From Eledone cirrhosa (taxonomy: Eukaryota): a stretch of 64,000 nucleotides of DNA. The position numbers and the translations under genes were made by a program. The notes under the pieces were generated by a model. It searched no databases. It saw only the letters and a list, made by a program, of their open reading frames with translations, and was not told the origin of the DNA. Below are positions 4,961-60,147 of this stretch, piece by piece (position 1 is the stretch's first letter; each line of letters begins with the position of its first letter). The stretch is taken from positions 378,882,001 to 378,946,000 of the forward strand of contig OZ024740.1 in the NCBI GenBank assembly GCA_964016885.1, in the 5' to 3' direction.

Positions 4961-5155
4961 TTATTTCGGGTTGAGTCGGAGGTAACCACAGTAAGTAAGG
5001 TACTCAATGCATAGCAGAGTATAAAAGTTTTAATATAGAAGAGAGCTTCGACAGTACTAGAACTGTTTCATTCGTGAGAAATCATCAGGGCTTCCTGATG
5101 ATTTCTCACGAATGAAACAGTTCTAGTCCTGTAGAAGCTCTTCTATATTAAAACT
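4961..5155 (-). mobile_element. Fold-back hammerhead cassette, family H1 (tail 4961-5025, arms 5026-5089/5094-5155)
   Basis: Inverted repeat read directly. Related copies at 46035-46150 and 59966-60147. Confidence 0.8.
5090..5138 (+). ncRNA. Type I hammerhead ribozyme (with a mirror core on the minus strand at 5045-5088)
   Basis: gcttc CTGATGA t ttc tcac gaa t GAA acag ttctagtc ctgt A gaagc: stem I gcttc/gaagc, GUA cleavage triplet. The minus-strand copy has GUC. Confidence 0.85.
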
Positions 5156-6328
5156 ATATATGTATATATATATATATATTTTAATATATAATTTATATAT
5201 ATATAAATTTAAAGATAATGCCACCCACACCCAGCGCATCAGCAAGGAATCTTACTTTATTAACAAATACGGACCCCGTCTAAACACTTCTCCCTAAGAC
5301 GAACCCACAACATACACACGTCAACATACATACCTACATCAGCATACATCTCTATCCACATATAAACACAATGACATACGTAAACACACATGTTCTATGG
5401 TGCAACACAAATATACACAAATTTGCATACCTTTTGATGTCTATAGATATAAACGTGCCGACACACAACATACATAAACGCACACATGCATTGCACACTG
5501 ATGGGCACATAATATTTGTACACAAGTATTCCAATACGGCAAGGCCTAATGGATTCCCCTTGCAGTACGTACAATCTGGACACTCACACACACCTTGGTA
5601 TTATGCCAATACTATATATCATTTCATACCTTTTATTATTAAGGTTTTTGATGTTCTATTGAGAGAATCGTTTTTACTGAAAATATCGAATAATGTACAC
5701 CATTTCACCAGTATCACAGAAATAAATACTGGTCCCCCCCCCCACACACATATATACACACACACATACACACGCGTACATTAACATACAAAGAGACATA
5801 CACACACACACACACACACACACACACACACTTCTCCGTATAAGACAAGAGCTGAAAAATATCTTTTAACATGTTAAAATATCCCCCACACACTTACAGA
5901 GACACATTCCTACTGACCATCCCTCTACCACGAATTACTCTGCTACACACACACACACACACACACACACTTGTCTTAATAGGCATTTGAACTGTCAACA
6001 GGCTGCGGTTCGCACACACATCACTGCTGACCATTATCACAACAACGAACCTCTTTACTACTACTACTACACACACACACACATATTTGTTTTGAAAGAC
6101 TTATTTTTCAGTGACTTCTCAATCAGCCGACACAAACCTACATTTGGCGCAAAATCAATTTTTAACATTCACATGACCTCTACCAACAAATCAAAATTGT
6201 TTTGACCACAAAAATTTTTGCAACACGAATTGGCGCGAAACTTATTTTAATACCGCTGGAGCCACTTTTTTCACATAAAAACAGGTAGAATTCCCAAAAC
6301 TAATCAGATTAGAGCAAACATCACGGAC

Positions 6329-6494
6329 GCTCTATCTCAAAATTATTTTTCAAAAGCATTAGAAATGCGCAACCGGTAAAACTTAAAACCAAAACTGAAT
6401 ACTAACCAGTACTATTACTAATTCTCACTTATTCCTAATTAAATTATTTTTCACCGTGAACAATTTGTCGGCATTTTCTTTTCCGTTTACCAAT
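6329..6494 (+). repeat. Dispersed repeat, probable PLE terminus; inverted copy at 21182-21358
   Basis: Shared GAAATGCGCAACCGGTAAAA..TTCCGTTTACCAATA, ending in (TA)n in both copies. Confidence 0.55.
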
Positions 6495-6530
6495 ATATAT
6501 ATATATATATATATATATATATATATATAT

Positions 6531-6779
6531 ACTGGTAGAACACGGGAAGTTAATATCCGTAGTGGTAGAGCACTCAGTCCATGGGACGAGTTAGGTAGAA
6601 GTGTTTACATAACACTTAGTTCACCATACCGAGAACAATTGTTTCACCTTAGCGGATCCTCAGCTCGTAATGAACATGGTTATACGGCCGCATAACCATG
6701 TCCATTACGAGTTGAGGATCCGCTGAGGTGAAACAATTGTTCTCGGTATGGTGAACTAACTGTTGTGTAACCACTTCTA
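6531..6779 (-). mobile_element. Fold-back hammerhead cassette, family H2 (tail 6531-6595, arms 6596-6687/6688-6779)
   Basis: Imperfect palindrome centred on TATACGGCCGCATA, flanked by (TA)n. A decayed fragment lies at 46978-47044. Confidence 0.8.
6630..6667 (-). ncRNA. Minimal type I hammerhead ribozyme (mirror copy on + at 6708-6745 with C3->U)
   Basis: Minus strand reads cgag CTGAGGA t cc gctaa gg t GAAAC AATT GTT ctcg; stem III is the palindrome AACAATTGTT. Confidence 0.8.
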
Positions 6780-7920
6780 TATATATATATATACACACAC
6801 ACACATATATATATATATGTATAAAGAGAGAGAGAAAGAGGGGGATATATATATATATATATATATATATATATATATATATATATATATATATATATAT
6901 ATATATATATATATATATGTGTGTGTAAGCCGCTCAGTCTGCGATGACTCGAGGGCTAAAAAAAACTCCCAACAACAGTGGTATAACCAAGAGAAAGAAA
7001 CAGTAATGAATACATAAATAATATATTTTATGGCAACTCTCTTGTCTGAGACAGGTCAAGATTAACGAACAAATTCTATTTAAAATACATACAGTATGTT
7101 AGTTCTCATTATCTACTTAGATTATATTAGAGTACTTTCTTATTCCAATTCTGATTTTCCGTTTATTTTTAAGTATATCATATTTTCATATATTTTTGTA
7201 TCCATATTATTGTTTTATCATTTTAAATTGATGTCTGAAACAGTAATAGTTGTCTTAATACATTTTACGTTTACAGCAAAAAAAAAAAAGGTTTAAAATA
7301 GAACTACACTCACACGCACTTTCACACAGACAGACATACAAACTGATAGACAGACACACGTATGTATATATGTATGTATGCATGTAAGTATGTATGTATG
7401 TACGTATGTATGTGTAAGCATGTATATGTATGTTTGTTTATGTATCTATTCTTTTATAGATACCTAACATAACTGTAATTTTGGCTCCTGTGTTTTGTCG
7501 TTTCATTTATTAACTATATATATATATATATATATATATATATATATATATATATATATATATATATATATATAAATATATATATATATATATATATATA
7601 TATATATATATATATATATAAATATATATATATATAAATATATATATATATAAATATATATATATATAAATATATATATATATAAATATATATATATATA
7701 AATATATATATATATAAATATATATATATATATAAATATATAAATATATAAATATATATATATATAAATATATATATATATAAATATATATATATAAATA
7801 TATATATATATATATATATATATATATATATGTATATATATATATATATATTGTCATTTCATTTATTAACTATATATATATATAAATATATATATATATA
7901 AATATATATATATATAAATA

Positions 7921-56708: not shown

Positions 56709-57230
56709 TAACTTTGAATAACTTTGAAATGTTTTGGCCAGTATTGGCCCAGGCCATGTCTAACTTAATAGCACCACCTGGCGAAGTCTTTCAATTCAGG
56801 ATTTGGGCACCATGGCCCATTCGAGAAGAGAATTACTGTTTGCGGAGACATATCCGGGTGTGGGTGGTTTGTCCGGGATTACTTGGAGGAATTTGTCCAA
56901 AGACTTCTTGAATTTTGTGTGGTCAGTTTCTGTTTTGACGTGTCCTGGTGTGATGTTGAAGAGAGCAGGGCCGATTGAGGTGAAATAATTGTGCCGTATT
57001 GTTGTTATGAGTTGCGATTTAGATTTTTGAATGGGACGGATAGCACGGGGCCCAAGCCTTGGGTGTATCTTGAAGGCGATGCCAACATCATTTGGGCAGT
57101 GATGATGGAACATTTTCCACATCATGCAGATAATATAACGCTCACGGCGACGTTGGAGTGAGTAAAGTTTCAGGTTTTCCAATCGACCCCAGTAGTCAAG
57201 GTCTGACATGCCATCTATCTTTTTCGTGAT
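56709..57230 (-). mobile_element. CR1/L2-like LINE 3' end, cut by the assembly gap
   Basis: [51 protein letters not shown]. Confidence 0.8.
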
Positions 57231-57430
57231 NNNNNNNNNNNNNNNNNNNNNNNNNNNNNNNNNNNNNNNNNNNNNNNNNNNNNNNNNNNNNNNNNNNNNN
57301 NNNNNNNNNNNNNNNNNNNNNNNNNNNNNNNNNNNNNNNNNNNNNNNNNNNNNNNNNNNNNNNNNNNNNNNNNNNNNNNNNNNNNNNNNNNNNNNNNNNN
57401 NNNNNNNNNNNNNNNNNNNNNNNNNNNNNN
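57231..57430. other. Assembly gap (200 N)
   Basis: Run of n. Confidence 1.
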
Positions 57431-59960
57431 ATATATATATTATATATATATATTATATATATATATATATATATATATATATATATATATATATATATTA
57501 TATATATATATATATATAATATTATATATATATATTATATATATATATATATATATATAATATATATATATATATATATATATATATATATATATATATT
57601 ATATATATATATTATATATATATATATATATATATTATATATATATATATATATATATATATATATATATATATATATTATATATATATATATATATATA
57701 TATATATATATATATATATATATATTATATATATATATTATTATATATATTATATATATATATATATATATTATATATATATATATATATATTATATATA
57801 TATATTATATATATATATATATATTATATATATATATATATTATATATATATATATTATATATATATATATATATATATATTATATATATATATATATAT
57901 ATTATATATATATATTATATATATATATATATATTATATATATATATATATATATATATATATTATATATATATTATATATATATATATATTATATATAT
58001 ATATATATTATATATATATATATATTATATATATATATATATTATATATATATTATATATATATATATATATTATATATATATATATATATATTATATAT
58101 ATATTATATATATATATATATATATTATATATATAATATATATATATATATATTATATATATATATATATTATATATATATATATATATATTATATATAT
58201 ATATATATTATATATATATATATATATATATATTTATATAATATATATATATATATATATAAAATATATATATATATAATATATATATATATATATATTA
58301 TATATATATATAATATATATAATTTATATAATATATATATATATATATATAATATATATATATATATAATATATATATATATATAATATATATATATATA
58401 TAATATATATATATATATATATAATATAATATATATATATATATATATATATATATAATATATATATATATATAATATATATATATATTATAATATATAT
58501 ATATATATAATATATATATATATAATATAATATATATATATATATAATATATATATATATATATAATATATATATATATATATAATATATATATATATAT
58601 ATATAATATATATATATATATAATATATATATATATATAATATATATATATATATATATATATATATATATATATAATATATATATATATATATAATATA
58701 TATATATATATATAATATATATATATAATATATAATATATATATATATATATAATATATATATATAATATATATATATATAATATATATATATATATATA
58801 TATATAATATATATATATATATATATATATATATATAATATATATATATATAATATATATATATATATATATATAATATATATATATATATATAATATAT
58901 ATATATATATATAATATATATATATATAATATATATATATATAATATATATATATATATATAATATATATATATATATAATATATATATATATAATATAT
59001 ATATATATAATATATATATATATATATATATATATATAATATATATATATATATAATATATATATATATATATATTATATATATATATATATATAATATA
59101 TATATATATATAATATATATATATATATATATATATATATATAATATAATATATATATATATATATATATAATATATATATATATATATATATATGTATA
59201 TATATATATATATATATATATATATATATATATAATATATATATATATATATATATATATATATAATATATATATATAATATATGTATATATATATATAT
59301 ATATAATATATATATATATATATATATATATATAATATATATATATATATATATATATATATATATAATATATATATATATATATATATATATATAATAT
59401 ATATATATATAATATATATATAATATATATATATATATATATATATATATATATATAATATATATATATATAATATATATATAATATATATATATATAAT
59501 ATATATATATATATATATAATATATATATATATAATATATATATATATATATATAATATATATATATATAATATATATATATATATATATAATATATATA
59601 TATATATATATATATATATATATAATATATATATATATATATATATATATAATATATATATATAATATATATATATATATATATAATATATATATAATAT
59701 ATATATAATATATATATAATATATATATATATATATATATATATATATATATATATATATATATATATATATATATAATATATATATATATAATATATAT
59801 ATATATATATATATAATATATATATATATATATAATATATATATATAATATATATATAATATATATATAATTTATATATAATATATATATAATATATATA
59901 TATAATATATATATATATATATATATATATATATATATATATATATATATATATATATAT
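57431..59960. repeat. 2.5-kb interrupted (TA)n array
   Basis: Direct reading; adjacent to the gap, so the length is unreliable. Confidence 0.95.
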
Positions 59961-59965
59961 GTGTG

Positions 59966-60147
59966 TATGCCGGGTTCAATCGGGTGGTAAAGACAGTACT
60001 CAATACATAGCAGAGTATAAATATTTAATATAGAAAAGTCTTCTACGGGACTGGAACTGTTTCATTCGAAGGAAATCCCTGGGCTTTCCTGATGATTTCC
60101 TTTGAATGAAATAGTTCCAGTCCCGTAGAAGACATTTCTATATATTA
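59966..60147 (-). mobile_element. Fold-back hammerhead cassette, family H1 (plus-strand core 60084-60132)
   Basis: Same layout as 4961-5155: tail GTACTCAATACATAGCAGAGTATAA, then arms, then GGGCTTTC CTGATGA TTTCCTTTGAAT GAAA. Confidence 0.75.

Follow-up and report, generated by a model that had tools for sequence, protein, structure and literature searches.

The stretch of Eledone cirrhosa DNA analysed here (64,000 nucleotides, positions 378,882,001 to 378,946,000 of contig OZ024740.1; hereafter, the window) comes from a genome of 3.0 Gb that is rich in microsatellites. It contains seven short fold-back cassettes with hammerhead ribozyme motifs, which a preliminary description had related to Penelope-like elements (PLEs), to ambisense viroid-like RNAs and to miniature inverted-repeat transposable elements (MITEs). 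We found that the cassettes are likely neither an ambisense RNA nor a MITE family, but a very large set of aborted PLE insertions, and that their hairpins likely record PLE replication instead of viroid-like RNAs.

Fold-back cassettes in the window

The cassettes, labelled E1 (4961-5155), E2 (6531-6779), E3 (31048-31431), E4 (33979-34335), E5 (36168-36401), E6 (50760-50890) and E7 (59966-60147), are all predicted to fold as hairpins. The layout given for them earlier, a tail followed by an arm and an inverted arm, is clear in six but not in the decayed E6. Self-BLAST found inverted repeats in six stretches (arm identity 81-92%); E6, which it missed, yet folds at -56.5 kcal/mol. E1 and E7 form one family (76% identical in self-BLAST) and the rest are distinct, which leaves six dissimilar families, where the preliminary description had at least six. 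None of the cassettes has an open reading frame (ORF) of its own, as had been stated. They were also said to be embedded in (TA)n, and on at least one side the flank is indeed (TA)n or a related microsatellite. The features of the cassettes are the following (positions in the window).

4960-5025, - strand: tail of E1, with a fixed outer end (same start in 30/30 aligned copies); candidate start site 1 of reverse transcription
5026-5090, - strand: tailed arm of E1; hammerhead core present, 5' strand of stem I missing
5088-5140, + strand: complete type I hammerhead of the tail-less arm of E1; stem I 7 bp, stem III 4 bp
5141-5155, + strand: end of the tail-less arm of E1, joined to (TA)n; candidate start site 2 of reverse transcription
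6532-6779: E2; tail 6532-6595, arms 6596-6779, fold about 22 nt upstream of the core
From 6663: E2 hammerhead core of the - strand, complete; the + strand core has C3U
31049-31434: E3; tail 31049-31078, arms 31079-31434
From 31251: E3 hammerhead core of the - strand, with stem I; the + strand hammerhead is without it
33979-34335: E4; arms 33982-34273, tail to 34335; core on the - strand only, with a stem III mismatch
34809-35113: second E4 cassette in opposite orientation, 92% identical to the first over 348 nt and with the same complex junction
36168-36404: E5; tail 36168-36231, arms 36232-36404
From 36318: E5 hammerhead core of the - strand, complete; the + strand is without the CUGA box
46024-46155: E1-family cassette with its hairpin centre deleted, not among the examples of the preliminary description
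50760-50895: E6, an old, diverged hairpin with mutations in each core; it folds 6 nt upstream of the core
59966-60147: E7, an older member of the E1 family; + hammerhead weakened (core from 60089), - core broken

Hammerheads on the cassette strands

A strict type I descriptor found 11 cores in the window, against a single match in 30 block-shuffled copies. The cassettes had been credited with a hammerhead on each strand; this does not hold, since only 4 of the 14 cassette strands passed (E1 +, E2 -, E5 - and E7 +) and none of the seven cassettes passed on both. On these single strands, CUGANGA, GAAA and UH are present together with stems I-III. E3 - is complete by eye and failed the stem II rule of the descriptor. 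Elsewhere, the fold removes the 5' strand of stem I (E1 -, E3 +) or the CUGA box (E5 +, E4 +), or else the core is mutated (E2 + by C3U, E7 -, and both strands of E6). Some genomic E1 copies retain stem I on both arms, e.g., L084, L104 and L122. A scan of the window with Rfam gave no hammerhead family among the 150 listed of 232 matches. The E4 family has an unusual hammerhead (34045-34115, - strand, and loci L248-L265), with a long, irregular stem II of about 62 nt and a stem I of 7 bp, which descriptors with short stems miss.

The + strand hammerhead of E1 has a predicted cut between 5133 and 5134 and a U-U pair at the base of stem II, which is known from a weakly active axolotl hammerhead (PMC7229834). 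Folding of E1 RNA gave -103.3 kcal/mol for the hairpin and -42.0 kcal/mol for the best fold retaining the ribozyme. A read-through transcript is thus expected to form simply double-stranded RNA, with the ribozyme buried and self-cleavage blocked. For subfamily B, folding of the parent 5' RNA placed the structure with the ribozyme at 3-9 kcal/mol above the minimum. The stem I pair of E1 arms preceded by a promoter is A-U in 34/43 and C-G in 7/43, a single compensatory change between subfamilies, and stem I of the parent thus appears to be under pairing constraint, although this amounts to one compensatory event.

Abundance and parent elements

The arms are very abundant. Exact arm motifs were counted 15,972 times genome-wide for E1, 5,766 for E2, 2,780 for E3 and 3,492 for E5, whereas the reversed control patterns gave 0. 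The hairpin junction pattern of E1 occurs at 4,867 loci. An exact 32-mer of E4 matched only its two copies in the window, and a similarity search then revealed a larger, older family. Raw reads had been expected to span the hairpins if these are real, and contigs derived from the reads of three runs do bridge E1-type junctions (one sample, possibly the one assembled). To study E1 without selecting for hairpins, we took the first 100 exact matches in genome order, which lie in the first 42 Mb of one contig. The 99 arms kept comprise 48 in short hairpins, 38 that follow a conserved promoter-like segment and 13 others, mostly solo copies cut at stem I.

The parent of E1 is represented by the full-length element L097, which begins with the hammerhead, followed by the tail, an open frame of 713 aa for reverse transcriptase (RT) and GIY-YIG, and a long 3' untranslated region (UTR) of simple sequence; at its 3' end are a promoter-like segment and a second hammerhead without tail. 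The tail sequence of E1 thus lies between the hammerhead and the ORF start in this parent. In L066 and L079, of the same family, the promoter, hammerhead, tail and ORF start are in line, and the complete layout is a promoter-like CCAAT/TATA segment, hammerhead, tail, RT+GIY-YIG ORF, 3' UTR, promoter and hammerhead. The E1 parent protein has YRDD and, near the C-terminus of the 713-aa frame, a YIG motif; its Pfam GIY-YIG match (E 0.012) is below the curated cut-off. It has 1,404 relatives at E <= 1e-20, none of which is named among the 120 listed. The Hydra clade of PLEs is marked by an RWK motif, a change of DKG to DKT, a CxCx5C linker, CxxC plus CxH and the lack of CCHH (PMC8557442). We found by eye RWR, DKT, CNC-x5-C, CDLC and CMH in the E1 parent, which were matched to that description. 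A hammerhead in the pseudo-LTR (pLTR, LTR being long terminal repeat) and insertion in (TA)n are also as in the Hydra clade. The E1 parent is, by this motif description, a putative autonomous Hydra-clade PLE.

Hydra-type sequence also accompanies the other families that could be traced. The parents of E5 (L281 and L282, full-length and Hydra-type) have the same layout of promoter, hammerhead, tail and ORF, and in L191 and L289 a Hydra-type ORF precedes E2 arms. E3 comes from a different source, a non-coding tandem unit of 437-470 bp, with five natural direct dimers and one hammerhead per unit, and tblastn with the Hydra protein gave no match inside the four units covered. With direct tandem repeats in the 150-450 bp class, a hammerhead in each and no ORF, it corresponds to the structural definition of a non-LTR retrozyme (PMC7229834). 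At the loci concerned (L291, L292, L293, L294 and L167), each unit has two ATGCAAAT octamer motifs, and the element, which has a promoter-like region of its own, sits in (TA)n with PLE-type tails. A search of 6 stretches and 30 loci for an ORF-bearing parent of E3 gave no accepted candidate, as the nearby ORF matches are set off from the arms by other repeats. The earlier comparison with retrozymes is apt for the source of E3. The cassettes do not have the single fixed junction of a MITE-like family, two pairs excepted (see below).

These results support the earlier view of the cassettes as minimal PLE derivatives: they are protein-free, come from pLTRs with type I hammerheads and would be made by PLE machinery. 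They do not support the proposal that the RT/GIY-YIG elements of the window mobilise them. Those pieces belong to other Hydra families (33-44% protein identity to the E1-family parent) and have no DNA similarity to the cassettes in self-BLAST. When RNA runs with the promoter-hammerhead-ORF stretch were sought, there were none among the holders listed. The 3' UTR of the E1 parent is a TA/TG microsatellite-like tract of about 3 kb (L097:740-3800; also in L091, L094 and L095), which could seed its own (TA)n targets.

The fold lies at a family-specific point near the hammerhead

We compared 98 unselected E1 arms with the parent upstream of position C3. The match extends for at most 7 nt in 52 arms, 10-12 nt in 5, 20-33 nt in 3 and at least 53 nt in 38. 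Solo copies cut at the fold point of the hairpins also occur. The CCAAT/TATA promoter region is absent from the cassettes, and the E1 cassette consists of the first 65-135 nt of the parent, twice. In 35 of the 38 promoter-preceded arms, 30-33 nt separate the TATA box from position -6 although the spacer sequence differs among subfamilies, and position -6 falls within an initiator-like word and is the first base of stem I. TATA spacing and the initiator consensus are standard background. We infer that E1 RNA starts at -6, i.e., at TATA + 30 nt.

The other families have breakpoints of their own. They are at -31 to -33 in E4, where three solo copies begin at the same word, at about -14 to -26 in E3 and about -15 to -29 in E5, and looser in E2, from inside the core to -44 (30 arms each for E2, E3 and E5).

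Hairpins mostly have one tail, and their junctions vary

We then analysed the junctions of 30 unselected E1 hairpins. The preliminary description had asked whether copies have a common fold junction. The position of the fold moves by no more than a few bases, but the letters at the junction vary, with 23 different spacers among the 30, as expected of a fold made anew at each insertion. In 15 hairpins the arms overlap by 1-8 nt of microhomology, and in the other 15 there are extra bases; spacers are 4-17 nt long in the first 50 of the 4,867 loci. The arm reaching further 5' is the tail-less one in 16 hairpins and the tailed one in 10, and both are equal in 3.

The two arms of a hairpin are much more alike than arms of different hairpins. 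The same loop II allele is found in both arms of 26/30 hairpins, against a fraction of 0.29 expected from allele frequencies. Among the 28 hairpins that could be scored, arms differ by 0.86 positions per 46 nt within cassettes and 2.76 between cassettes, and in 14 of them the arms are identical over the 46 nt compared.

Exactly one arm carries the tail in 29/30 E1 hairpins. Over four families, 80 arm views with a close inverted partner (a pair may thus count twice) gave two tails in 0, one in 76 and none scored in 4. The rule also holds in longer inverted insertions (L091, L093, L094, L095, L098, L099 and L101) and in two insertions of the window.

13114-13678: longer head-to-head insertion with perfect 263-bp arms, a tail-like extra on the right only and a variant hammerhead-like core
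14410-17208: longer head-to-head Hydra-type insertion with 1.35-kb arms, 99% identical, and a tail on the left only

The second of these (2.8 kb) has CUGANGA..GAAA cores at 14668 (-) and 17057 (+) and folds within the C-terminus coding for GIY-YIG. The first is a palindrome without loop between long (TA)n runs, with the core UUGAUGG ... CGAAA, and possibly reflects a different PLE clade or an effect of assembly.

The tail-less end is not confined to hairpins. It recurs in L097 and in 26 promoter-preceded tail-less arms among the 99, and 30 of 48 unpaired arms have it without a close inverted partner. Its presence without a partner in these arms and at the end of L097 suggests that it serves as a separate priming site.

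A minor class comprises 57 loci, found with the subfamily B pattern only, at which one arm starts at the cut site of the ribozyme. Among the 12 inspected, it is the tailed arm in 10 and the tail-less one in 1, the last being complex; this skew to the tailed arm (10 of 11) has p = 0.012. In these 10, the ribozyme is missing from the tailed arm, whereas the tail-less arm holds it whole but is without the tail; neither can be a copy of the other, barring later deletion. Ribozyme-cleaved RNA is not supported as the main template given these 57 loci of subfamily B against 4,867 hairpins, in all subfamilies, that run through the ribozyme. Solo 5' ends up to 30 nt above the cut site, tallied by eye in the first 100 of 653 rows, have no sharp peak: about 5 of some 28 distinct loci fall at -2 to 0. 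We also dropped the idea that a cap G had been reverse-transcribed at the junctions, as the other arm or a longer stem I pairing accounts for the extra G just as well.

A proposed mechanism: two run-off cDNAs joined head to head

We propose that the cassettes are the shortest head-to-head insertions of PLEs, made afresh at each site by the joining of two run-off cDNAs, and we regard this as probable. Transcription would begin at the family-specific fold point (TATA + 30 nt in E1), just upstream of the hammerhead. Two nicked strands of a (TA)n target would then each prime reverse transcription. The tail end and the tail-less end would correspond to the two internal start sites that Poseidon uses in vitro. 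In the present elements, these sites would lie some 65 and 135 nt downstream of the RNA 5' end, and each would be used once and on opposite target strands, with both primings probably on one RNA by strand displacement. The template would mostly be uncleaved RNA, because the copies run through the ribozyme. Both cDNAs would run off the RNA 5' end, and their ends would be trimmed and joined head to head via 1-8 nt of microhomology or a few added bases. The RNA start site, the order of priming and the chemistry of joining are inferred. The products are predicted to be dead ends and, if read through, would give 65-175 bp of double-stranded RNA in which the ribozyme is unable to fold.

The in vitro work on Poseidon speaks for these steps: its protein, a predicted dimer, nicks and extends both strands of AT-rich DNA and initiates at two internal RNA sites flanking the tail, and it copies uncleaved RNA with no need of ribozyme cleavage (PMC11167929).

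Several observations weigh against this proposal. Start-site use by Poseidon showed no difference between the target strands (PMC11167929), so that a strict rule of one tail requires an added assumption. Nested junctions, with a short inverted piece in one arm (L024, L028, L037, L044, L054, L104 and L122), show that some hairpins arise by snap-back or as copies of one already in place. One complex junction is common to L119 and L121, and another to the two E4 copies of the window. Hairpin centres that were inverted or trimmed once in place could look like symmetric junctions or like the class of 57 loci. The transcription start is read from motifs and breakpoints, and the breakpoints of E2, E3 and E5 are spread over tens of bases in samples of 30 arms. 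The E1 sample was drawn with an exact 31-mer and reaches no further than 42 Mb into one contig. Finally, no ORF-bearing parent has been shown for E3, E4 or E6, the family of E6 not having been searched genome-wide.

A more ambitious version is possible, and we put it forward tentatively. In retroviruses, minus-strand strong-stop DNA is a short cDNA made off the 5' end of the RNA; it is primed by a tRNA and is not integrated. The pLTR may act like a retroviral U3-R-U5, such that strong-stop cDNAs must jump and hairpins are the cases in which both jumps failed. The RNA would start at the hammerhead (R), and one ribonucleoprotein would prime both strands at the sites bounding the tail. [quoted passage not shown] The same machinery would also move the 440-bp retrozyme-like unit with octamer motifs. 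If true, solo pLTR ends, hairpins, long inverted insertions, the promoterless full-length L097 and partial tandems (L066) would all follow from one rule, which would also give the PLE hammerhead a role.

Alternative explanations

The main rival is snap-back, which we find unlikely: a single tail-primed cDNA would run off the RNA 5' end, fold and copy itself back to the target, and the centre would later be trimmed or flipped, as in the known repair of palindromes broken at their centre. Its product would likewise be a dead end of each insertion, from one priming event. It explains the common alleles and the single tail with no added assumption, and both its nested signatures (L037, L044, L054, L119, L121 and L270) and centre-deleted cassettes (46024-46155, L090 and L127) exist. 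Yet it predicts that the loop is always in the tailed arm, whereas the tail-less arm is the longer one in 16/26 unequal hairpins, and the identical arms of half the scored hairpins leave little time for later change. It also sits badly with tail-less ends that have no close inverted partner, and with the cut-site class, which random deletion would have split evenly between the arms.

The hairpins could instead be MITE- or retrozyme-like non-autonomous families, transcribed and retrotransposed whole by PLE proteins. When the whole E1 cassette was used as a query, the 40 top matches scored were all full length, although such a query itself favours hairpins, and one spacer recurred in 8 of the top 30; the complex junctions common to the two E4 copies and to L119/L121 agree with this, as does the non-coding tandem unit that is the source of E3. 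We nevertheless hold it to be improbable. An inherited junction would be fixed, which, two pairs excepted, is at odds with 23 spacers in 30 unselected hairpins. Moreover, a subfamily allele present in one arm is present in the other too and does not mark a single arm, the cassettes are without the CCAAT/TATA region found before the hammerhead in parents, and an identical fold point is found in solo copies and at the 5' end of the full-length element.

For rotifer head-to-head pLTRs with palindromic junctions, it was suggested that antisense RNA from a bidirectional pLTR promoter primes itself (PMC3846280). Applied to the cassettes, this would require antisense RNAs whose ends coincide exactly with the sense TATA + 30 point, and it leaves unexplained the solo sense-type copies, the full-length elements that stop at that point and the junctions with extra bases, which makes it very improbable here.

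We give hardly any credence to the idea, raised by the preliminary description, that the cassettes yield ambisense viroid-like RNAs self-cleaving in both polarities. CUGANGA and GAAA boxes do occur on both strands of E1 and E3, and stem I persists on both arms of a few genomic copies. However, none of the listed cassettes carries two complete ribozymes, the hairpin is favoured by 61 kcal/mol over the fold in which the ribozyme is not buried, and the second ribozyme mirrors the first, such that each strand carries its own antisense and cuts on opposite strands define no monomer. That the fold-backs are artefacts of assembly or library is next to excluded, for although two longer palindromes of the window are 99-100% perfect with loops of 0-1 nt, the arms of the listed cassettes diverge by 8-19%, their spacers are not palindromic and the tail is on one side only, and read-derived contigs bridge E1-type junctions.

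Relation to known systems

Inverted pLTRs were already known, and the value of the cassettes is as a genome-scale read-out of the Penelope mechanism. In L1 twin priming, two target-primed cDNAs that copy non-overlapping parts of the RNA are joined by microhomology; in contrast, both cDNAs of a cassette would copy the same 5' segment. Canonical PLE insertions have, like the cassettes, a head-to-head 5' copy, a palindromic junction and a single tail (PMC3846280; PMC8557442). The cassettes differ in being that structure alone, without ORF or promoter, with the fold pinned in each family and in thousands of copies. The E1 parent resembles the Hydra clade (PMC8557442) in its single ORF with a C-terminal GIY-YIG, its motifs, the hammerhead of the pLTR and the (TA)n targets. 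Members of that clade are generally shorter than 3 kb, whereas the E1 parent copy reaches about 6 kb through its long microsatellite-like 3' UTR, and it has kept a GFK motif.

Pairs of PLE hammerheads on opposite strands, 100-700 bp apart, were described in Schistosoma mansoni and read there as truncated PLEs (PMC4209133). The E1 cores are mostly 4-17 nt apart, and the parent, the spectrum of junctions and the asymmetry of the tail are worked out here. Poseidon (protein PAc; PMC11167929) agrees with the proposed mechanism in the two start sites bounding the tail, the extension of both strands, the AT-rich target and the uncleaved template. It belongs to another clade, and that study saw no strand bias of the start sites and left the joining of inverted ends unaddressed. 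Non-LTR retrozymes (PMC7229834; bioRxiv 10.64898/2026.07.22.740005) are, like the cassettes, non-coding and PLE-related with a type I hammerhead, and a PLE origin of animal retrozymes is argued in the second of these works. They are direct tandems with circular RNA, whereas the cassettes are inverted and have no unit bounded by two ribozymes on the same strand.

How the tandem and inverted ends of PLEs are built was named an open problem (PMC8557442), and the steps after priming were called unvalidated (PMC11167929). A literature search of partial coverage, supplements excluded, gave no description of PLE insertions that consist of a hairpin alone with its fold at the RNA start, nor of a strong-stop model; mollusc Hydra families may be found in the supplements of PMC8557442. 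The genome has about 4,900 minimal products of one family together with a parent whose ORF is intact and whose RNA has a short, defined 5' region, which makes the origin of PLE inverted ends testable. The predictions are sharp (a start at the hammerhead, one tail per insertion, arms from the same template) and suit the existing in vitro system. The cassettes also call for caution, because opposite-strand hammerhead pairs found in screens of animals for ribozymes or viroid-like RNAs can be by-products of retrotransposition. If transcribed by read-through, the hairpins might be a ready source of double-stranded RNA against the 5' end of the parent.

Other elements in the window

Two further PLE pieces belong to other families.

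4129-4947, - strand: 5'-truncated GIY-YIG end of another Hydra-type family, abutting E1
50943-56238, + strand: broken, near-full-length Hydra-type PLE of another family, with a partial tandem and a 120-bp inverted 5' piece; parent of no listed cassette

The first was considered as a stand-alone GIY-YIG gene and rejected, since 10/11 other copies extend upstream in shared sequence, which makes it a 5'-truncated piece. Both pLTR copies of the second have the hammerhead core CCGAAGA and a palindromic stem III, and its ORF has Asn-rich stretches.

Another pLTR-like end is present in two copies (34599-34769 and 35903-36165), with a degenerate core and a palindromic stem III. Its tail opens like those of E1 and E4, with a common TATACTCTGC word, hinting at a conserved signal for the start of reverse transcription. 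At the tail-less end of E5, inverted repeats (36395-37286; 91% over 113 nt) bracket a fragment of a mariner-like transposase.

A further family of hammerheads with a long stem II is found at 7978-8019 (-), 10583-10624 (+), 31641-31678 (-) and 45807-45848 (+), and two of its copies bracket an inverted PLE fragment (9345-10532). A lone compact type I hammerhead lies at 12221-12262 (+), with an (AACC)n run downstream. Older, diverged inverted repeats at 21483-21869 and 29312-29611, in which no hammerhead core was found, are possibly MITE remnants.

The remaining repeats are of other kinds. Two fragments (2221-3254 and 47125-48775), 99% identical, are 3' ends of a non-LTR retrotransposon whose C-terminus has a zinc finger. 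A dispersed repeat of about 190 bp, similar to short interspersed elements, is present in at least seven copies with 82-92% identity (917-1110, 1631-1727, 24192-24555, 30935-31021, 40640-41017, 42190-42382 and 46503-46695).

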